A stretch of DNA of 24,000 bases, taken from NCBI RefSeq assembly GCF_036271055.1, contig NZ_DATBBJ010000099.1, positions 51,216 to 75,215 of the forward strand, in the 5' to 3' direction. Origin of the DNA: Scandinavium sp. (lineage in GTDB: Bacteria > Pseudomonadota > Gammaproteobacteria > Enterobacterales > Enterobacteriaceae). The notes beneath the pieces are model-generated. The model searched no databases, had not been told where the DNA came from, and worked only from the letters and a program-made list of their open reading frames with translations. Positions 4,075 through 20,403 of the stretch are shown here, one piece after another. The translations under genes and the position numbers were made by a program. Numbering within the stretch: position 1 is the stretch's first letter; the number at the start of each line of letters is the position of its first letter.

Positions 4075-4825
4075 ATGAAGACAGAAGCGAGCAAAAAGCA
4101 GGAGCTGAGTCTGTTCTATGGTTCATCTCAAGACTGTGTTATCAACCTCTTGGAGGCGTGTGAAACTATATCCCACTCTGGCCCGCTGAATTCGAATCAC
4201 CCTCAAGCTATTGCGAGGCACTCTCATTATCTAATTGAATTAATTGAAAAGATATCACCTCATTTGCATTGTCATACCTATCCAATAGGGCAGCGCTTTA
4301 CTCTGAGTTCGAGCCGTGACTCAAAATGCTACTACATTCGCACGGGTGCAATCTCGCTTTATCGCCAGCCGAATGATGTATTGCTCGAACTCCTTGATGC
4401 GCCAAGTATAAGAGGTATTATTCCGATCCCTCCAGATTCTGCTTCCATCTACACGCTGAAAGTGATAATCCCTGCTGAAATCGCGGTTCTGGATATTGGT
4501 TGCCTCTATGAGTTGTTGGGCGAGTTAAATTTATGGGAAACCTTCTCTCGCTATTTACAAGTGATGTCAAGTATTTTAGGGGAGGTGATTTTCAAACTGG
4601 TAGTGCCATCTGCCTATGATAGTGTGCGAATTCAACTTTATGAGTTAATGGCTAAGCACAGAAAATGTGCGCGAGCGTATCCTGGTTGAGAACTATATTC
4701 GAGATAAAACCAATATTTCACGAAGCCGAATTATGCGAATTCACTCTAATCTGAAAGCAGGTGGATATATTCTGATGGATAGAGGCATTCTAAAGGATAT
4801 AAGTAATATTCCTTTGAAATATTAA
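4075..4825 (+). pseudogene. IprA/YaiV-like regulator (Crp-like N-domain plus C-terminal winged HTH), disrupted by a +1 frameshift
   Basis: The frame-1 ORF 4075-4689 ends ...SAYDSVRIQLYELMAKH then reads junk. Frame 2 is open from 4649 and reads ENVRERILVENYIRDKTNISRSRIMRIHSNLKAGGYILMDRGILKDISNIPLKY, with a stop at 4823-4825. This is collinear with the remembered IprA C-terminus (...RIGVMNYIHQRTRVSRSVVAEVLAALRKGNYIEMNKGKLISINRLPSEY). The shift must lie within 4649-4689, near the A-run cacagaaaatg. Confidence 0.65.
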
Positions 4826-13432: not shown

Positions 13433-14626
13433 GTGGAAAGGTTTGATGCCATTGTTGTCGGCGCGGGCGCGGCGGGAATGTTTTGTGCAGCGCAGGCGGG
13501 ACAGGCCGGGGCGCGAGTGTTGCTTCTGGATAACGGCAAAAAGCCGGGCCGCAAGATTTTAATGTCCGGCGGTGGGCGATGTAACTTCACCAATATGTAC
13601 GTAGAACCCGCGGCGTACCTCAGTCAGAACCCGCATTTTTGCAAATCGGCGCTGGCGCGTTACACCCAGTGGGACTTTATCGATCTGGTCGGAAAATATG
13701 GCATTGCGTGGCATGAGAAGACCCTTGGCCAGTTGTTCTGCGATGATTCCGCCGAGCAAATCGTCGACATGCTGGTGTCGGAATGCGAGAAGGGCGGGGT
13801 CATCACGCGTCTGCGTACCGAGATTATCAGCGTTGAGCGCGACGAAGAGGGCTACACGCTGCAACTCAACGGCGATACGGTGGCGGCGAAAAAACTGGTG
13901 ATTGCCAGCGGCGGGTTATCGATGCCGGGCCTCGGCGCATCGCCATTCGGCTATAAGATTGCCGAGCAGTTTGGCCTGAACGTTTTGCCGACCCGCGCAG
14001 GATTGGTGCCCTTTACACTGCACAAACCGCTGCTGGAACAATTGCAGGTGCTTTCCGGCGTTTCCGTGCCATCGGTGATCACCGCCAATGATGGCACCGT
14101 ATTCCGCGAAAACCTGTTGTTCACCCACCGTGGGCTTTCAGGCCCTGCCGTGCTGCAAATTTCCAGCTTCTGGCAATCTGGTGAATTCGTCAGCATCAAT
14201 CTACTGCCAGAGTGTGATCTTGAAACGTTCCTCGATGAGCAGCGTAACGCGCACCCCAACCAGAGCCTGAAAAACACGCTGGCGATGCAGTTGCCAAAAC
14301 GTCTGGTGGAATGCCTGCAACTGCTGGGGCAAATCCCGGATGTACAACTCAAACAACTTAACAGCAAAGATCAGCAGCAGCTGGTCGACACGCTGACCAA
14401 CTGGCGCATACAGCCAAATGGCACCGAGGGATACCGCACTGCCGAAGTAACGCTGGGTGGTGTCAATACCGATGAGCTTTCCTCACGCACTATGGAAGCG
14501 CGCAAAGTACCGGGGCTTTATTTCATCGGAGAAGTGATGGACGTTACCGGCTGGCTCGGCGGCTACAACTTCCAGTGGGCATGGGCATCGGCCTGGGCGT
14601 GCGCGCAGGCGTTGGTAGAGGCGTAG
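13433..14626 (+). CDS. yhiN: HI0933-like FAD-dependent oxidoreductase
   Basis: GTG start. (M)ERFDAIVVGAGAAGMFCAAQAGQAG (GxGxxG) and ...MSGGGRCNFTN; collinear with E. coli YhiN. Confidence 0.9.
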   Translation: MERFDAIVVGAGAAGMFCAAQAGQAGARVLLLDNGKKPGRKILMSGGGRCNFTNMYVEPAAYLSQNPHFCKSALARYTQWDFIDLVGKYGIAWHEKTLGQLFCDDSAEQIVDMLVSECEKGGVITRLRTEIISVERDEEGYTLQLNGDTVAAKKLVIASGGLSMPGLGASPFGYKIAEQFGLNVLPTRAGLVPFTLHKPLLEQLQVLSGVSVPSVITANDGTVFRENLLFTHRGLSGPAVLQISSFWQSGEFVSINLLPECDLETFLDEQRNAHPNQSLKNTLAMQLPKRLVECLQLLGQIPDVQLKQLNSKDQQQLVDTLTNWRIQPNGTEGYRTAEVTLGGVNTDELSSRTMEARKVPGLYFIGEVMDVTGWLGGYNFQWAWASAWACAQALVEA

Positions 14627-14669
14627 ATCGATAATAATGTTTGTAGCTTAAGCAAAAGGTTTGTAGTTG
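14626..14669. repeat. left arm of the two-module imperfect inverted repeat bounding the 5.6 kb island
   Basis: The outer module gatcgataataatgtttgtagctt (14626-14649) matches the reverse complement of 20255-20278 at 22 of 24 positions. The inner module gtttgtagttg (14659-14669) equals the reverse complement of 20221-20231 at 11 of 11. The arm starts on the last base of the yhiN stop codon. Confidence 0.65.
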
Positions 14670-14823: not shown

Positions 14824-16032
14824 TTAGTATGAAGGCGCCGAGCCAGTCAGCCTACTTAACTCCGCAATGCGGAGTTGACGATATGCCAGCACTGTTGAAT
14901 ACAGCGCGAGAAGACAGCAAAGGAAGGCGAAAATAAAAATTGCGGGGTAACCGAAGATGGAGACGATAACTCCGCCAACCAGACCTGAAATGAGGATCCC
15001 TATATCAAAGCAGGATTCATAGGTGCTCAGTGCAAGCCCAATGTTTTCATCAGGCATGCTCTTGATTGCCGGCAATGCCAGTAGCGGATAGACCATAGAC
15101 AGACCGAATCCTGTCATAAACGAGCCCAGCATTGCCATCCATGGGCTTGATGCTAGCCCAATCATCAGGAGCCCTACCGCCTCGATGCAGAGTGAAAACA
15201 AGGTCAGTTTTAGCCCGGAACTGTCGGCTTTCCATCCGAGTGTAAGCCTAGAAAGAACGTATCCTACTCCAAAAAGCGAAATGGCAATAGCGGCCTGCTT
15301 ATCCCAGTCATTTTGCATAAAAAACAGTACCAGAAAACCAGTGATAGAGGCATATCCAATATTCGCCAGTGAAAAACCAGAACCAGCTTTCCAGACGCGT
15401 GTAATAGCGTAAGCAAGGGTGACATGGCTTCTGGAGGGAGAGACAGATACGGGTTTAACTAGCATGACAACGATAAAGCCCAGCAGGGGCAATATTGTCA
15501 TGATTAATGCGGAGATATTCAGACCTGAATGGGCATAGAACCATGTCCCCCCGAAATTCCCGATTGCAAGTCCCAGGAACATGGCAATCCCCACCCAGGA
15601 CATGATTTTCCCTGCATGAGCCTTTCCAACCAGTCCGATTGGCCAAGTTCCACTGCAGGTGAATATCAGACTTTCCCCGATCCCCATCAGTACCCGTGAA
15701 AACAGGATCACGCCGTAAGCTGTGTGAGACGGAGCAATAAACGTAAATGTCAACCAGCACAATAAACCGGCAGAGACCGTAAGAGATAGCCCCAGCGTCA
15801 TCCCTTTTCTTGGGCCTTGGTTGTCAGAATAGCGGCCAGCGAAGGCTCTGGAGACGAGTGTAGCCACGGACTCTGTCGCGATCACAAGCCCGACAAAAAA
15901 CGCCGAATATCCGGCGATTTTATTGATATACAAAGGAAGGATGGCAAGAGATAGCCCAAGGCTGATAATGGCCAGAAAAAGTATTCCAGCCACGAGGGTA
16001 GCAGCGATTAAATTATTCTGGATTTTGTACAT
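14824..16032 (-). CDS. MFS transporter (about 12 TMS, AraJ/YdhP/NepI-like)
   Basis: Hydrophobic throughout. MFS motif A is GRYSDNQGPRKGM. I prefer the ATG at 16032, with AGGA 8 nt upstream. The ORF extends to 16056. It overlaps the upstream formyltransferase gene by 20 nt. Confidence 0.85.
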   Translation of the reverse strand: MYKIQNNLIAATLVAGILFLAIISLGLSLAILPLYINKIAGYSAFFVGLVIATESVATLVSRAFAGRYSDNQGPRKGMTLGLSLTVSAGLLCWLTFTFIAPSHTAYGVILFSRVLMGIGESLIFTCSGTWPIGLVGKAHAGKIMSWVGIAMFLGLAIGNFGGTWFYAHSGLNISALIMTILPLLGFIVVMLVKPVSVSPSRSHVTLAYAITRVWKAGSGFSLANIGYASITGFLVLFFMQNDWDKQAAIAISLFGVGYVLSRLTLGWKADSSGLKLTLFSLCIEAVGLLMIGLASSPWMAMLGSFMTGFGLSMVYPLLALPAIKSMPDENIGLALSTYESCFDIGILISGLVGGVIVSIFGYPAIFIFAFLCCLLALYSTVLAYRQLRIAELSRLTGSAPSY

Positions 16033-16642
16033 GCATATAATCCTTATATACGACACGGGATTCGGACAATGTTATCTTTCCGTTCAAGAAGGCAAGTGCC
16101 GCACGATAAATCATCTTCTGTTCCACTTCAATAATTGCCTGCCGAAGATCACTTTCCGTCATTCCATTGGTAATCCTGACTGGCTCCTGATCAATAATGG
16201 GCCCCGCATCCACTTCCTCATTAATGAAATGCAGTGTGGCTCCGGTGACACGCAACCCCATATTCAAGGCTTTTTGCTGAGCTTTGTCTCCGGGCAAAGC
16301 AGGCAGTAAGGAAGGATGCGTGTTCATGGTTTTATGGCCAAACTCCATGGAGAATTCTTTAGTGAAAATACGTCTGAATCCACCCAGAATCACCAGATCT
16401 ATCTGGTTTTTTCGTAAGATATCGGCGATATGCTCATCAAACGCATGACGTGAATCGAAATTTTTATGATCGATGACCTTAACTTTTCTTCCTGAAAAAT
16501 TGGGGTTAGAGACCGAAGTAAACTCGCGGTTGTTAGTGATAATCACGCTCAGTTCGGCAGCGGTCTGACTGTGTTGCACTGCACGGATAGCGGATTGAAT
16601 AAGGGTTCCTCGCCCTGAAAACAGAAAGGCTATTTTTTTCAT
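16013..16642 (-). CDS. PurN-like folate-dependent formyltransferase (stand-alone, about 209 aa)
   Basis: Collinear with remembered E. coli PurN: FLFSGRGTLIQ (vs LISGNGSNLQ), VILGGFRRI (vs VLAGFMRIL), MNTHPSLLP (vs LNIHPSLLP; Asn and His conserved), EEVDAGPII (vs DELDGGPVI; Asp conserved). Its start overlaps the upstream stop as ATGA (16639-16642). Confidence 0.85.
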   Translation of the reverse strand: MKKIAFLFSGRGTLIQSAIRAVQHSQTAAELSVIITNNREFTSVSNPNFSGRKVKVIDHKNFDSRHAFDEHIADILRKNQIDLVILGGFRRIFTKEFSMEFGHKTMNTHPSLLPALPGDKAQQKALNMGLRVTGATLHFINEEVDAGPIIDQEPVRITNGMTESDLRQAIIEVEQKMIYRAALAFLNGKITLSESRVVYKDYMHVQNPE

Positions 16643-17928
16643 AGTCTGACCTGTGCTCTTAACATTTCATATTCAGTATCATTCAATTCAATATCGACAT
16701 TCACAAACCGACCGTCGATAATAATATTTTCTCCGTTGATCATTACACGCGAAGGACTTTCGCTGTTTAACAATTTGAGAAGCGATACAGGGGTATTAAT
16801 GTAGTCAGTATCAATTTTCGATTTCTCAAAAAGGATCAGATCAGCTTTGTAACCACTTTCTAGTTTGCCAACATTATTCAGGCCCAGTGTTTTGGCTCCG
16901 CCTTCGGTCAGAAAATATAGCAATTTGGCCGCAGACACTTTTTTGCTAAAATCCGTATCTCCATGGTGATATAACGCAAAAAGTGCATCAGATGTCAGGT
17001 TATTGCCCGGATTGACCATTGCCGCATCAGTACCCAGACCGATATTGACATCACTCATCAGGGCTGAGACAGGAAAGGTGCCTGCCCCGACAAAGCTGTT
17101 ACTGACGGGGCAATGAATTATCTGAGCACCACTATTCTTAAGTACAGAAATGTCGTCTTCGGAAAGATGGCTACAGTGAACAAGTGCAGTATGCCGATCA
17201 AGGATCTTTAATTCCGCTAAGCGCTGGATACCACTTTTTCCATACTTAGCACTGTGCAGATCAACCTGTATTTTCCCTTCATGCGCATGCAGGAACAGTC
17301 TGGTTCGGGTGTGACGTGCTGCTTTATGCAGAGCCAAAAGTAGTGCATCGTCGGCCGATAGTTCGGAGGCCGTAGCCGGGCTCACTGATACAAGAGAGTC
17401 TTGGTAAGAAGAAAGCGCTGCATAAAAATTATCACAGGCCACATCCACGGTACTGCGCTGTGGGCTCTGACCTTTCCCTGCCCACATGTTGCTCTGGCAA
17501 AAATTGACCACACAGCGACACCCTGTGAGTCTGGCGGCCAGGACGTCATTCTCAGCACGACTGGTAAACAGTCCAAATGTCGTCACGCCCTTTTTTATTC
17601 CAGAGGACAGCGCCTTTAGGGCCGCGATATACTGTCCCTGAGGTGACTCCAGCTCATTATTTTTATGTACAGAATCCAGCACCATATCAATCGGTGAGGC
17701 ATCAAGAATGCTGCAATGAATTTCTTTACTGGGATGAAGGTGGGCATTGACTAGCCCCGGGAAAGCAATAAGCTGGCTGGCTTCGACGATTGCTGTTTCA
17801 CTGCAGACGACCAAATCTCTCCCAATCTCAACGATGGTGTCGTCTTCGATATAGATGTCACCGCTAATGAGCAACATAGGGACCACATCAAGATATTTTA
17901 TCCCTTTAAACAGGATCTTCGTTTTCAT
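16639..17928 (-). CDS. ATZ/TRZ-type metal-dependent amidohydrolase, nucleobase/nucleoside deaminase-like
   Basis: PGLVNAHLHP (HxH), LHAHEG (His plus catalytic-type Glu), VHCSHL and GTDAA (Asp) occur in the canonical order. I prefer the start MKTKILFKG at 17928. The ORF extends to 17979. Confidence 0.85.
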   Translation of the reverse strand: MKTKILFKGIKYLDVVPMLLISGDIYIEDDTIVEIGRDLVVCSETAIVEASQLIAFPGLVNAHLHPSKEIHCSILDASPIDMVLDSVHKNNELESPQGQYIAALKALSSGIKKGVTTFGLFTSRAENDVLAARLTGCRCVVNFCQSNMWAGKGQSPQRSTVDVACDNFYAALSSYQDSLVSVSPATASELSADDALLLALHKAARHTRTRLFLHAHEGKIQVDLHSAKYGKSGIQRLAELKILDRHTALVHCSHLSEDDISVLKNSGAQIIHCPVSNSFVGAGTFPVSALMSDVNIGLGTDAAMVNPGNNLTSDALFALYHHGDTDFSKKVSAAKLLYFLTEGGAKTLGLNNVGKLESGYKADLILFEKSKIDTDYINTPVSLLKLLNSESPSRVMINGENIIIDGRFVNVDIELNDTEYEMLRAQVRL

Positions 17929-18027
17929 AATGGCTCTCTGTTTGCTGGTACAGGACAGTGGCACCTGGAGTCTGTTCATACAGACCTGTATGCCAGCCTC
18001 CTTCCTGTTAAATAAAAGTGCTGATAC

Positions 18028-18591
18028 TTATAATTTCAGGGCTTTTTGTTCGGCAATCATAGATCCAAATGCGCAACGCAGCGCTGTGCTGAATTCATCT
18101 GACCGGGTATACATCCCTCCCGTCAGGACGCCGTTCGTTCCCAACCGTTCCAGTTCCTGCCGAGAGATGGATGCAAATTTTTCCAGTACCAGATCGGAAA
18201 GCTTCAGGTTGCGTGAAAGGCCAACGGCGACGTCGGCTGGGAGCATGATCTTACCGCTGCAGCCGTAATACATTCTGCCGTCAGCGATATTTTTCAGGAC
18301 TGCCCATCCATAAAGAAAGGTCCCGTAGGATGTTTTTTCAGTAAGCCCCTCCAGAGCAATGACTACGTCAACTTCTCCTCCCAGCTTGGCTTCGAGGTTT
18401 TCAATCCGGCGGTGGCAGCCTGCCAAGGCTTCTTCATCGGTGTCAGGTGTTTCACTGACCCCGGAAGAGATGGCATAACATCTCAGTGAGAAATTATGGA
18501 ACGCCTGGCTGCATATTTCTTTTGTCGCTTTTATTTTTGCACTATTTTCAGAACATAAAGCGATAAGGGGGTGATTATTCGGCATGCGCAT
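18028..18591 (-). CDS. DUF84 / YjjX-like non-canonical NTP phosphatase homologue
   Basis: Collinear with remembered E. coli YjjX: CSENSAKIKA (vs ATTNPAKIQA), SSGVSETPDTDEEALAGCHRRIENL (vs [25 protein letters not shown]), GTNGVLTGGMYTRSDEF (vs GAIGVFTAGKLTRASVY). The start is ambiguous (ATG at 18591 or 18585; the ORF extends to 18663). Either start overlaps the upstream gene's 3' end. Confidence 0.75.
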   Translation of the reverse strand: MRMPNNHPLIALCSENSAKIKATKEICSQAFHNFSLRCYAISSGVSETPDTDEEALAGCHRRIENLEAKLGGEVDVVIALEGLTEKTSYGTFLYGWAVLKNIADGRMYYGCSGKIMLPADVAVGLSRNLKLSDLVLEKFASISRQELERLGTNGVLTGGMYTRSDEFSTALRCAFGSMIAEQKALKL

Positions 18592-19621
18592 GTACCCACT
18601 TAATAACTGGAGTCTGTTGTTGGCCGTTAATGATATCGGACAACGTATCCTGTGCTGATTCAATTAGCGGCATGCGCTTATCACTATCACTGAGCAGGTG
18701 ACTTTCTATCACCTCATGGGCCTTTTGCAGAGTTTTATTGTAGATTTGTGTGAAGGTAGTTTTCATGACTGTGGTACCGAGTCCCAGACCGTTCATGCCA
18801 CTCTGACATAAATCCTTCCACAATAATTCATGAATGAACGAAAAGAAGCCCATGTCATACGGTAAGCCTGTAATAACATCAGTACTTCGGGATGTTGTTT
18901 CGCAGTACAGGGCATTATTCTTTATGTAAAATTGAATGCCGACGGTGCAGGGAAAATCTTTGGTGTCTGACTTGTGGTAATTCTGATTAATGTTAATAAT
19001 AGCTCTGCGAGAATCCCGGTTAGCCATCAGAACATGCTTTGCCCAGTTATACTGGTTGCCGTATCCTTCTACAGGTTCATAAAAGACATAATACCCATAG
19101 TTTGAATTAACGTTACCGTCATCATCGGTCAGGCTCATCCAGAATTTTGAGGCTTTCGCCAGCCCGTCTTCAGCCTTCAGGCTTCCCTTAAAGTAGGCAA
19201 CAAACTCTCTGGCAAGATACCGAATAGCTCCTTGTCTGGTGGTATGCAATCTGTTCAGAGGGTGCCTTAATAAATAGTTTACACCATAGGCCTGCTGCGC
19301 ATCACCTGCGCGAGATGAGATGGATTCCCCTTCTGCAAGAATATGGTAAACCCCATTTCTGACGAGTTCATCGACTGAATCCGCTGCAATCGTTTTGTAG
19401 TTATTACATGAAGTGATAATGCCGTTATCCATGACGCATCCTTTGCTGAGTAATAAACATATATCACAATCCATATTAAGAATATCGACGAGGAATTTAT
19501 TGTCTATGTTTTTTTGGCTTTTATAAGCTAGGTGCATTCCAGTTATGCAATTATAAAGAGAAGGGGGTTTAGCACCGCTAAAGGATGTGTCAGTGAATTG
19601 AATGGTCTGATATTTCATCAT
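18575..19621 (-). CDS. thymidylate-synthase-superfamily enzyme, closest to T4 gp42-type deoxycytidylate (or CMP) 5-hydroxymethyltransferase
   Basis: Motifs collinear with remembered T4 gp42 and ThyA: YLAREFVAYF (gp42 YIQRELEWY), GNVNSNYGYYVF (gp42 GEINSNYGWAIW), NRDSRRAIINI (NPDSRRGIMIY), DFPCTVGIQFYI (catalytic Cys; gp42 DFMCTNTVQYLI; ThyA APCHAFFQFYV), TSRSTDVITGLPYDMGFF (gp42 NMRSNDVVFGFRNDYAW; ThyA YQRSCDVFLGLPFNIAS). Confidence 0.85.
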   Translation of the reverse strand: MMKYQTIQFTDTSFSGAKPPSLYNCITGMHLAYKSQKNIDNKFLVDILNMDCDICLLLSKGCVMDNGIITSCNNYKTIAADSVDELVRNGVYHILAEGESISSRAGDAQQAYGVNYLLRHPLNRLHTTRQGAIRYLAREFVAYFKGSLKAEDGLAKASKFWMSLTDDDGNVNSNYGYYVFYEPVEGYGNQYNWAKHVLMANRDSRRAIININQNYHKSDTKDFPCTVGIQFYIKNNALYCETTSRSTDVITGLPYDMGFFSFIHELLWKDLCQSGMNGLGLGTTVMKTTFTQIYNKTLQKAHEVIESHLLSDSDKRMPLIESAQDTLSDIINGQQQTPVIKWVHAHAE

Positions 19622-20220
19622 GATACTATTGAGGCCTTGCCAGGCCGGTGTTTCTTTTGTTATTTTCTGAGTGAATATATTAAGTGTCTGTGAATTTTCG
19701 CGGTTTAATCTATGTCTTTTAATTAATTAGACCTGTGTCACGTTTTTGATATTATTACAGACGACGGCGTTTTAAAATTAAACGAGGGGGCTTCATGACC
19801 GGATTCGTCATCCAATACGACGCTATCTCCTTACAATAAAAAGCCCATACAGAGGTAGGAAGCGACCTGCGCCAGTCACTGTCCTGATGCTTAGCCTAGC
19901 CCACAAACTCCAGCATGTCCCCTGCCAGCAGCCTGAATGTATGCATACTGTCCGTGGTAGCGGTGATCGCAGTCTCTCCTGCATCGGTGGCCAGAGAGTT
20001 GCCCTTTAGTTCCCCTAGCACAACAGCCAGTGACCCTCTATCGGTTTGCATGGACCTAATGCTGTCGAGTATGCACTCAGCGGTGCAGATATGTAACATT
20101 CGGTAGGCTAGCAATCAGGTGCACACGATTGCATCTTCCTGTCTTAGCATCAGAATTGCGACTCAGGGTGGAAGATAGGTCTGACAATCCCTTGTTTGTC
20201 TTACTGGTAAGCACTGAATG

Positions 20221-20278
20221 CAACTACAAACTTTTTTACTGAAAAAATCCCTCAAAGCTACAAACTTTATTGTCGATC
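20221..20278. repeat. right arm of the two-module imperfect inverted repeat bounding the island
   Basis: caactacaaac (20221-20231) and aagctacaaactttattgtcgatc (20255-20278) are mirror images of the inner and outer modules at 14659-14669 and 14626-14649. The spacer is 23 nt here and 9 nt on the left. Confidence 0.65.
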
Positions 20279-20403
20279 CATAAGAGGTGTAAGAGCAGAA
20301 CAACAGGGAAGGCATCAATAGCACAAAATAATTCCCTGTTTTTATCGTGGGAATGTATGATGCTTCACCCTTTTGCCCGAGCCAGGATTAAGACAAAGAA
20401 CGC

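Follow-up and report, generated by a model that had tools for sequence, protein, structure and literature searches.

A predicted cytosine-nucleotide 5-hydroxymethylase of the ThyA fold at the head of a mobile five-gene bacterial cassette

Enzymes that hydroxymethylate cytosine nucleotides are known from the T-even phages and from two antibiotic pathways, those of mildiomycin and bacimethrin. The phage T4 enzyme gp42 (PDB 1b49, 1b5d, 6a9b) is a deoxycytidine monophosphate (dCMP) hydroxymethylase that gp56 supplies with dCMP from deoxycytidine triphosphate (dCTP). MilA of Streptomyces rimofaciens (mildiomycin) and BcmA of Clostridium botulinum (bacimethrin) are bacterial cytidine monophosphate (CMP) 5-hydroxymethylases of the ThyA fold, which open pathways to secreted small molecules. 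Here we describe a predicted third hydroxymethylase family, found in bacteria and mis-annotated as thymidylate synthase (TS), starting from a 24,000-nucleotide stretch of Scandinavium sp. (contig NZ_DATBBJ010000099.1; the whole stretch is called the window below) in which an open reading frame (ORF) of 348 codons lies on the reverse strand at 18575..19621. Its product is most likely a cytosine-nucleotide C5-hydroxymethylase, judging by its predicted active site. We consider it probable that this folate-dependent enzyme of the ThyA fold converts dCMP to 5-hydroxymethyl-dCMP and is the first enzyme of a mobile five-gene operon with a putative modification and export pathway.

By sequence, gp42 is the closest solved relative of the Scandinavium enzyme, and each of the two is linked to a nucleoside triphosphate (NTP) pyrophosphatase and a deaminase. 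The partners are nevertheless not homologous, a DUF84 protein standing in the place of gp56 and an amidohydrolase in the place of the zinc dCMP deaminase. Unlike in T4, a transporter is linked to the enzyme and there is no kinase or glucosyltransferase, and the Scandinavium family is cellular, not viral. In this comparison the cassette resembles the dCTPase/gp42 logic of T4, built from unrelated parts. An N-glycosidase partner of the MilB/BcmB type occurs in some lineages of the family, as in the mil and bcm pathways, but the window itself has no such hydroxymethyl-CMP N-glycosidase, which was found in other lineages only, and no methyltransferase or ThiD-like kinase. To our knowledge, DUF84, TRZ/ATZ-type amidohydrolase and PurN-like partners do not occur in the mil or bcm clusters. 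In phage modules found in the MetaGPA study, a ThyA homologue has as partners a dCMP deaminase, a 5-hydroxymethylcytosine (5hmC) carbamoyltransferase and an NTP pyrophosphatase resembling MazG (PMC8670742). The set of functions is the same (hydroxymethylase, NTP pyrophosphatase, deaminase, and acyl or carbamoyl transfer to the hydroxymethyl group), but the partners in Scandinavium are from different families and belong to a bacterial operon with an exporter rather than to a phage genome.

Family assignment and active-site signature

Placement of the family rests on profile scores, Foldseek comparisons and signature residues. The ORF product matches Pfam PF00303 (Thymidylat_synt) with E=1.5e-19 and 70.7 bits against a cut-off of 24.3, over residues 91-307 of the 348-amino-acid ORF. 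As a single query, its top PDB sequence match is gp42 (1b49, E=2e-12), before ThyA and MilA, and a profile of 16 family members scores gp42 at 80 bits (E=1.3e-21), E. coli ThyA at 61 and MilA at 46. Although homologues are named "thymidylate synthase" in NCBI, UniRef and JGI, every NCBIfam cut-off for TS equivalogs was missed, with 24-54 bits against cut-offs of 108-405 (for example, 53.5 against 327). A preliminary description of this DNA had proposed a ThyA-superfamily enzyme of the gp42 type rather than a TS, and the Pfam match, the PDB alignments and the residue signature all agree with it.

The motifs named in that description align as it had supposed. HMMER puts the cysteine of FPCTV, the presumed nucleophile, on gp42 Cys148 and ThyA Cys146. 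The SRSTD segment, ascribed to phosphate and base binding, aligns to gp42 R168-S169-N170-D171 (ThyA R166-S167-C168-D169), and the aspartate of LPYDMGF, read as an Asn-to-Asp switch, falls on gp42 Asp179 and ThyA Asn177. NSNYG corresponds to gp42 N93-S94-N95-Y96-G97, the glutamate of YLAREF to gp42 Glu60 and ThyA Glu58, and TFTQIY to ThyA GDTHLY and gp42 GSLHVY, with Gln replacing His207/His216 and the Tyr kept. These alignments are far beyond chance. Two more markers of hydroxymethylases, absent from the earlier account, are also present, namely Asp at the position of ThyA Leu143 (gp42 Asp145) and the loss of Trp83.

Key residues were counted in 91 distinct full-length family members, aligned and drawn from 130 loci; numbering is that of the 285-residue protein. 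The nucleophile Cys162 (gp42 Cys148, ThyA Cys146), Asp193 (gp42 Asp179, ThyA Asn177), Asp159 (gp42 Asp145, ThyA Leu143), Arg142 (gp42 Arg123), Arg182-Ser183 (gp42 Arg168-Ser169), Asp185 (ThyA Asp169) and Tyr112 (gp42 Tyr96) are each present in 91/91, Ser110 (gp42 Ser94) in 90/91 and Glu76 (gp42 Glu60, ThyA Glu58) in 89/91. At the position of ThyA Trp83 there is Leu, Ile or Val in 89 of the 91 proteins, with Leu in the window protein, and Met and Phe in the other two. In the pair that binds the sugar 3'-OH, the histidine (ThyA 207, gp42 216) is Gln in 86/91 (Gln229 here), and the tyrosine (gp42 Tyr218, here Tyr231) is kept in 90/91.

The window protein has identical counterparts of gp42 Cys148, Glu60, Ser94, Tyr96, Arg123/124, Asp145, Arg168-Ser169, Asp171, Asp179 and Tyr218. 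Overall identity to gp42 is about 21-23% in Foldseek structural alignments; it differs from gp42 in the Gln at His216 and in a conserved 55-residue C-terminal helical module (invariant M254, P255, D266 and W279) that gp42 does not have. With E. coli ThyA it has in common the fold and Cys146, Glu58, Arg21, Arg126/127, Arg166, Ser167, Asp169, Tyr94 and Tyr209, but Asn177 and Leu143 are both replaced by Asp, Trp83 by Leu and His207 by Gln, and the C terminus differs. Nonsynonymous divergence (dN) from relatives is about 0.1 while synonymous divergence (dS) is saturated, indicating strong purifying selection.

In gp42, Asp179 selects cytosine, Asp145 has been proposed to activate water for the exocyclic methylene, and Ser94 and Tyr96 to hold the water network, whereas Trp83 and Leu143 of ThyA exclude water (PMC6400193; PMC13326640). 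Deoxyribose is specified by Ser167/169 with Arg126'/123', and ribose in MilA and BcmA by Ala176 and Lys133'; in the MilA A176S/K133R double mutant the sugar preference is reversed (PMC5175136). At this sugar pair the Scandinavium enzyme has Ser and Arg, not the Ala176 and Lys133' of MilA and BcmA. These signature residues favor dCMP over CMP as the predicted substrate, the sugar assignment being itself a prediction. The choice between ribo- and deoxyribonucleotides, which had been left open, is narrowed by the deoxy-type Ser and Arg, both found in 91/91, and stays partly open given the His-to-Gln replacement and the MilA-like fold.

The fold itself was examined in an AlphaFold2 model of the hydroxymethylase with a predicted local distance difference test score (pLDDT) of 89.3. 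Superposition on the gp42 and MilA structures, which the preliminary description had proposed, gave a ThyA fold that fits MilA best. Foldseek lists MilA first, with a template-modeling (TM) score of 0.74-0.75 over about 300 aligned columns including the C-terminal helices, about 20% identity and an equivalent of MilA Asp186. The TM score to gp42 is 0.66 when normalized to the query and 0.77 when normalized to the target, and that to ThyA is about 0.62-0.68, with E values from 1e-14 to 1e-17 to MilA, ThyA and gp42.

Gene start, operon partners and island

The enzyme had also been credited with an N-terminal extension of about 70 residues, which is contradicted by several observations. Homologues are 275-296 amino acids long, span only about 80% of the 348-amino-acid ORF and start at the position of Met64 in the window. 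In seven loci of 79-84% identity there is an in-frame stop 12-44 codons 5' of the shared Met, and all seven keep AAAGGA six nucleotides before the ATG; in the window this Shine-Dalgarno sequence is at 19444-19439 and the ATG at 19432. About 95 nucleotides upstream of the ATG are conserved as DNA in an upstream alignment, and a promoter scan found the promoter-like TAGACA-16-TATTCT at 19506-19479, within the supposed extension. From the homologue starts, the upstream stops and the conserved Shine-Dalgarno sequence, the real gene is therefore the shorter one of Table 1, and the 63-residue extension is an ORF-calling artefact of a wrong start codon. Rfam gave no riboswitch or other RNA, either in the whole window at the gathering threshold or in the 1.2-kb upstream region at E<=1, and there was no Pfam-recognizable ORF at 19622-20220, between the promoter and the right repeat described below.

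Table 1. Features of the hydroxymethylase operon and of the repeats that bracket it in the window
Feature	Coordinates	Strand	Size, assignment and evidence
ThyA-fold pyrimidine C5-hydroxymethylase	18575..19432	-	285 aa; predicted dCMP (less likely CMP) 5-hydroxymethylase
5' leader and promoter region, non-coding	19433..19621	-	In-frame stops in relatives, conserved Shine-Dalgarno sequence, promoter scan
DUF84 / NTPase_I-T (YjjX-like) nucleoside triphosphate phosphatase	18028..18585	-	185 aa; Pfam PF01931 E=1.5e-29; PDB YjjX 1u5w
Amidohydrolase-superfamily deaminase, TRZ/ATZ / 8-oxoguanine / isocytosine deaminase group	16639..17928	-	429 aa; Pfam PF01979, NCBIfam, PDB
PurN-like 10-formyl-tetrahydrofolate-dependent formyltransferase	16013..16642	-	209 aa; Pfam PF00551; TIGR00639 156.4 against cut-off 150.1
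MFS transporter, presumed exporter	14824..16032	-	402 aa; Pfam MFS_1, NCBIfam PRK05122
Left arm, two-part inverted repeat GATCGATAATAATGTTTGTAGCTT ... AAAAGGTTTGTAGTTG	14626..14669	.	Begins at yhiN stop codon; repeat search
Right arm of island-bracketing inverted repeat	20221..20278	.	Repeat search

All five genes are on the same strand (Table 1), and their starts were set by alignment to RefSeq-annotated homologues. The mechanically called ORFs begin too far 5' by 26 codons for the DUF84 gene (18586-18663), by 17 for the amidohydrolase gene (17929-17979) and by 8 for the MFS gene (16033-16056). The hydroxymethylase and DUF84 genes overlap by 11 nt, the amidohydrolase and PurN-like genes by 4 nt and the PurN-like and MFS genes by 20 nt, and the gap between the DUF84 and amidohydrolase genes is 99 nt. 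These overlaps are consistent with translational coupling of the operon.

In the amidohydrolase, residues H63, H65, H214, E217, H251 and D301 are invariant, so that the metal and catalytic set of HxH, HxxE, His and Asp is complete. Its AlphaFold2 model (pLDDT 90.3) has TrzN and the isocytosine deaminase Vcz as nearest folds, with a Foldseek TM score of 0.89 to each. A gap from 280 to 130 bits splits the cassette orthologues from all other proteins, and the enzyme forms a cassette-specific subfamily. In the PurN-like protein, an alignment with human GART and a census of 23 cassette sequences show that the catalytic Asn106, His108 and Asp144 are retained, as is Glu173, and the same census shows the substrate phosphate loop GNGSN changed to GRG[ST]L.

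The chromosome around the operon is the enterobacterial block of treF, gor, rlmJ, prlC, rsmJ, uspA, uspB, pitA and yhiN. A protein with 100% identity is on record from Scandinavium sp. Past yhiN the G+C content drops from about 53% to 42-49% (across 15-22 kb), and the five cassette genes lie in this low-GC stretch. The inverted repeat that brackets it has two parts, 24 nt at 92% and 16 nt at 94% complementarity, each with GTTTGTAG. Between the arms there is no transposase and no clear target-site duplication; the repeats may mark the termini of a non-autonomous mobile element. They were found in none of the 130 related loci and therefore do not belong to the cassette proper. The right repeat with its surroundings, about 170 nt (20113-20280), shows 77% identity to an intergenic region without annotation in a Klebsiella pneumoniae conjugative plasmid (CP120875.1), with nothing cassette-related near the match. 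Elsewhere in the window, a 204-amino-acid ORF at 4075-4689 (+) with no Pfam match lies in a patch of 40.7% GC between a beta-lactamase-family gene and gor, and may be a second small foreign insertion.

Distribution and variants of the cassette

The family is small in sequence space, with 40 clusters (50% identity) at E<=1e-30 among 1.84 billion representatives, and it spans Proteobacteria, Bacillota, Patescibacteria, Dependentiae and Chlamydiae. Viral occurrences are few, with family members on 2 of 2.9 million contigs of IMG/VR and the best GenBank phage proteins at most about 32% identical. The remark that such an enzyme is unusual in a bacterial chromosome holds only in part: it is not a stray phage gene, but leads a conserved mobile five-gene bacterial cassette that is found in many phyla and is nearly absent from viral contigs. 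This gene order is shared by Erwinia persicina, Ewingella, Dickeya, Edwardsiella, Trabulsiella, Burkholderia, Haemophilus influenzae and Bacillus cytotoxicus and by plasmids of E. coli and Salmonella. In Proteobacteria and Bacilli the hydroxymethylase also travels with a dedicated deaminase, formyltransferase and exporter. Among its carriers are pathogens of plants and symbionts of insects and nematodes, as well as Salmonella, E. coli, Haemophilus and Burkholderia.

The cassette is horizontally mobile. When PLSDB was searched by tblastn, the ThyA-like protein was found on 4 plasmids, and one 5.7-kb plasmid record consists of these five genes and nothing else; in 5,426 complete E. coli genomes, megablast found no match to the cassette. 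In Haemophilus influenzae the cassette adjoins TraI, integrase and ArdC genes, a setting like that of an integrative and conjugative element. Separately, a gene for a serine recombinase of the resolvase/invertase type adjoins the cassette in its closest metagenomic relatives (L053, L058 and L059), and nine other loci have LysR regulators upstream in divergent orientation; neither kind of gene is present in the window.

An NTP pyrophosphatase is present in most loci. DUF84 follows the hydroxymethylase in 66/130 and a NudG/MutT-like NUDIX protein in 30/130, and Ham1 lies further downstream in 10/130, usually alongside DUF84; many of the loci lacking a counted NTP pyrophosphatase are truncated. 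The other partners among the 130 loci are the amidohydrolase (39), the PurN-like protein (31), MFS transporters (26), HAD proteins (21), guanylate-kinase-like proteins (11) and TLC nucleotide transporters (6). The HAD phosphatase is inserted in many versions of the cassette, and in NCBIfam it matches best to YjjG, a family of non-canonical pyrimidine nucleotidases. MFS, EamA and MatE are three transporter families in the same role, EamA replacing MFS in Bacillus cytotoxicus and a MatE gene adjoining the family member in Acetivibrio. The Bacillus cytotoxicus cassette has a CTP synthase gene (pyrG) directly 3' on the same strand (L005, 11983-13608), which could boost the supply of cytidine nucleotides or be a resistant target copy. 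N-glycosidase-type partners are LOG-like in Burkholderia, where the gene is added to the cassette, and in Acetivibrio, and Nuc_deoxyrib_tr-like in Saccharibacteria.

Two variants differ in the putative acyl-transfer step. In one plasmid lineage of Salmonella, which lacks the PurN-like gene, a carbamoyltransferase of the NodU/CmcH type lies 5' of the cassette (L052, 7339-8904; L153-L156). This carbamoyltransferase is 24% identical over 251 residues to a characterized phage 5hmC carbamoyltransferase, a level that amounts to family-level likeness only and gives no specific link to the phage enzyme. In Thermoactinomyces sp. DSM 45891 (L132, 3070-13972) the order is radical SAM, ThyA-like, DUF84, amidohydrolase, three ATP-grasp, MFS, LOG-like and a further ATP-grasp gene. 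The ATP-grasp enzymes are of the L-amino-acid-ligase type, and to judge from its gene content the locus looks like a cluster for a peptide-linked pyrimidine.

More distant arrangements were seen in uncultured bacteria. In some contigs from metagenomes or metagenome-assembled genomes (MAGs), TLC-type nucleotide transporters flank a ThyA-like and a NudG/MutT-like NUDIX gene on both sides (L025, labelled Pseudomonadota; L029, unclassified; L088; L105), and Dependentiae/Babeliales MAGs have the ThyA-like and NUDIX genes without TLC. These arrangements suggest that the modified nucleotide is used or exchanged, rather than a nucleoside exported. ThyA-like, DUF84, guanylate-kinase-like and Ham1 genes stand in a row in human-gut and other metagenome contigs (L100, L101, L107, L116 and, from an uncultured Clostridia MAG, L045), and one family member, protein P0243, carries a fused AAA_17 kinase-like domain. 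As in T4, a partner of the kinase type would move the modified nucleotide toward the triphosphate.

Proposed pathway and rival readings

The chemistry proposed here is based on homology with T4 gp42 and ThyA. Cys162 would attack C6 of the base while Asp193 reads the N3/N4 face of cytosine. Glu76 would open 5,10-methylene-tetrahydrofolate (THF), C5 would attack the iminium ion and THF would leave, and a water activated by Asp159, together with Ser110 and Tyr112, would add to the exocyclic methylene. Since water addition replaces hydride transfer, THF and not dihydrofolate would be released.

In the pathway that we infer around this reaction, the DUF84 NTPase would make dCMP from dCTP. It may have a second, non-exclusive role in destroying the modified triphosphate, protecting the DNA of the producer. 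The scarcity of free dCMP in bacteria would account for the presence, in most loci, of an NTP pyrophosphatase taken from one of three unrelated families (DUF84, NUDIX and Ham1). The hydroxymethylase would then convert dCMP to 5-hydroxymethyl-dCMP and THF, the step to which the signature residues point. Where present, the YjjG-like HAD nucleotidase would dephosphorylate the product, with an N-glycosidase acting instead in some lineages, and the amidohydrolase would strip the 4-amino group to leave a 5-hydroxymethyluracil species. Formylation of the product by the PurN-like enzyme is the weakest step. Elsewhere the PurN-like gene is swapped for a carbamoyltransferase or ATP-grasp ligases, which suggests acylation of a shared nucleophile, and phage carbamoyltransferases acylate the 5-CH2OH of 5hmC (PMC8670742). 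Finally, the MFS pump, or EamA or MatE elsewhere, would export the product. The analysis establishes the fold, the family membership, the residue signature, the structure of the operon, its conservation and its mobility; substrate sugar, the order of dephosphorylation, deamination and formylation, the formyl acceptor, the identity of the product and its biological role are all by inference only. A role of the PurN-like protein as a folate-recycling helper was rejected as unnecessary because THF is released unoxidized and housekeeping GlyA can recharge it.

Several observations weigh against the dCMP hydroxymethylase and export reading. Full-text literature searches gave no biochemical or genetic data for any family member. 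The closest structural match of the enzyme, MilA, is a CMP enzyme, the N-glycosidase partners in other lineages recall MilA/MilB, and sugar handling may differ from that of ThyA, gp42 and MilA because the 3'-OH-binding His is Gln. The window has neither a HAD nucleotidase nor a glycosidase, so the dephosphorylation step needs a host enzyme here. PurN-type enzymes formylate amines, and no obvious amine is left after deamination; alternatively, the PurN-like gene could serve for immunity as a target copy, or its product could act ahead of the deaminase. The carbamoyltransferase variant is a single lineage in which the gene is split into 92 + 406 amino acids in every copy; the split could reflect a frameshift, a pseudogene or a gene in two parts. 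MFS proteins, lastly, can import as well as export.

A CMP 5-hydroxymethylase like MilA or BcmA, in a cassette that makes a ribonucleoside or base derived from 5-hydroxymethylcytosine or 5-hydroxymethyluracil, is a serious though less likely alternative. MilA leads the Foldseek list with its C-terminal helices covered, LOG-like or Nuc_deoxyrib_tr-like glycosidases adjoin family members in Burkholderia, Acetivibrio and Saccharibacteria, and Bacillus has the additional CTP synthase. The PurN-like protein also retains Glu173, which in glycinamide ribonucleotide (GAR) transformylase binds the ribose 2',3'-diol. However, the MilA pair that sets ribose (PMC5175136) is Ser and Arg throughout the family, and the profile favors gp42 over MilA by 80 bits to 46. 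A dedicated NTP pyrophosphatase is, moreover, expected for scarce dCMP, as in T4, and should be needless for CMP. We know of no NTP pyrophosphatase in the mil and bcm clusters. If the substrate is dCMP, as we prefer, the enzyme might still methylate rather than hydroxymethylate C5, giving with the deaminase of the operon 5-methyl-dCMP and then thymidine monophosphate (dTMP), or a source of a 5-methyl pyrimidine product. Asp at the Asn177 position would suit this equally, and family members adjoin nucleotide transporters in reduced intracellular bacteria that possibly need dTMP. We regard methylation as unlikely, given that Asp at ThyA Leu143, Ser at gp42 Ser94 and the loss of Trp83 are the pattern of hydroxymethylases, whereas enzymes that form methyl products retain a hydrophobic pocket that shuts water out; for dTMP supply, moreover, neither an exporter nor a formyltransferase would make sense.

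Slightly less probable again is a nucleotide-pool or DNA-modification device in place of a small-molecule pathway, depleting or poisoning dCTP against phages or placing 5hmC in the cell's own DNA. The likeness to the T4 set of dCTPase, hydroxymethylase and deaminase would fit such a device, as would the mobile settings (the integrase/TraI/ArdC neighborhood of H. influenzae, conjugative plasmids and the inverted-repeat island) and the distant family members linked or fused to nucleoside monophosphate (NMP)-kinase-like proteins. Against it, none of the five operon proteins matches a defense-system model of PADLOC-DB 2.0, the cassette has no nuclease, sensor or glycosyltransferase, and it lacks a kinase but has a transporter and, in many versions, a nucleotidase, both of which would remove the nucleotide from the pool instead of passing it on to DNA. 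An ordinary divergent TS, as the databases annotate it from the PF00303 match, is very improbable in view of the failed TS equivalogs, the nearly or fully invariant replacements at Asn177, Leu143, Trp83 and His207, gp42 rather than ThyA as the nearest solved sequence, and an operon context unrelated to dTMP supply. A 5-hydroxy-dCMP synthase of the RB69/DLP3 type shares Asp at Asn177 and an acidic residue at Leu143 with the family, but D169N has been reported for all tested 5-hydroxy-dCMP synthases (PMC13326640), and with Asp in 91/91 at this diagnostic position it is the most remote of the readings considered. A trimethoprim or antifolate resistance cassette was rejected, since an enzyme specific for cytosine cannot take the place of ThyA.

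Full-text literature searches turned up no paper on the cassette; an apparent match for "DUF84" was to DUF849 and irrelevant. What appears to be undescribed is the family itself, the occurrence of its deoxy-type signature in cells, and its fixed linkage to an NTPase, a deaminase of the TRZ/ATZ type, a PurN-like enzyme and an exporter. Building on the dCMP hydroxymethylase reading, we tentatively propose, as one possibility, that the cassette is a compact and widely transferred biosynthesis and export unit for an undescribed pyrimidine antimetabolite, an O- or N-formylated 5-hydroxymethyl-2'-deoxyuridine, -deoxycytidine or base, made by T4 logic from non-homologous cellular enzymes. One lineage would then carbamoylate the product and another add amino acids to it, with the NTPase doubling as self-protection. 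In intracellular or epibiotic relatives, the members with NUDIX, NMP-kinase-like and nucleotide-transporter partners may feed 5hmC nucleotides into their own nucleic acids or those of the host.

In conclusion, hundreds of annotations as "thymidylate synthase", "purN" and "inosine/xanthosine triphosphatase" at minimum mislead metabolic reconstruction. If the product is a secreted nucleoside analogue, the cassette would be a new and easily expressed five-gene natural-product pathway, and a likely factor in competition among bacteria or with their hosts.

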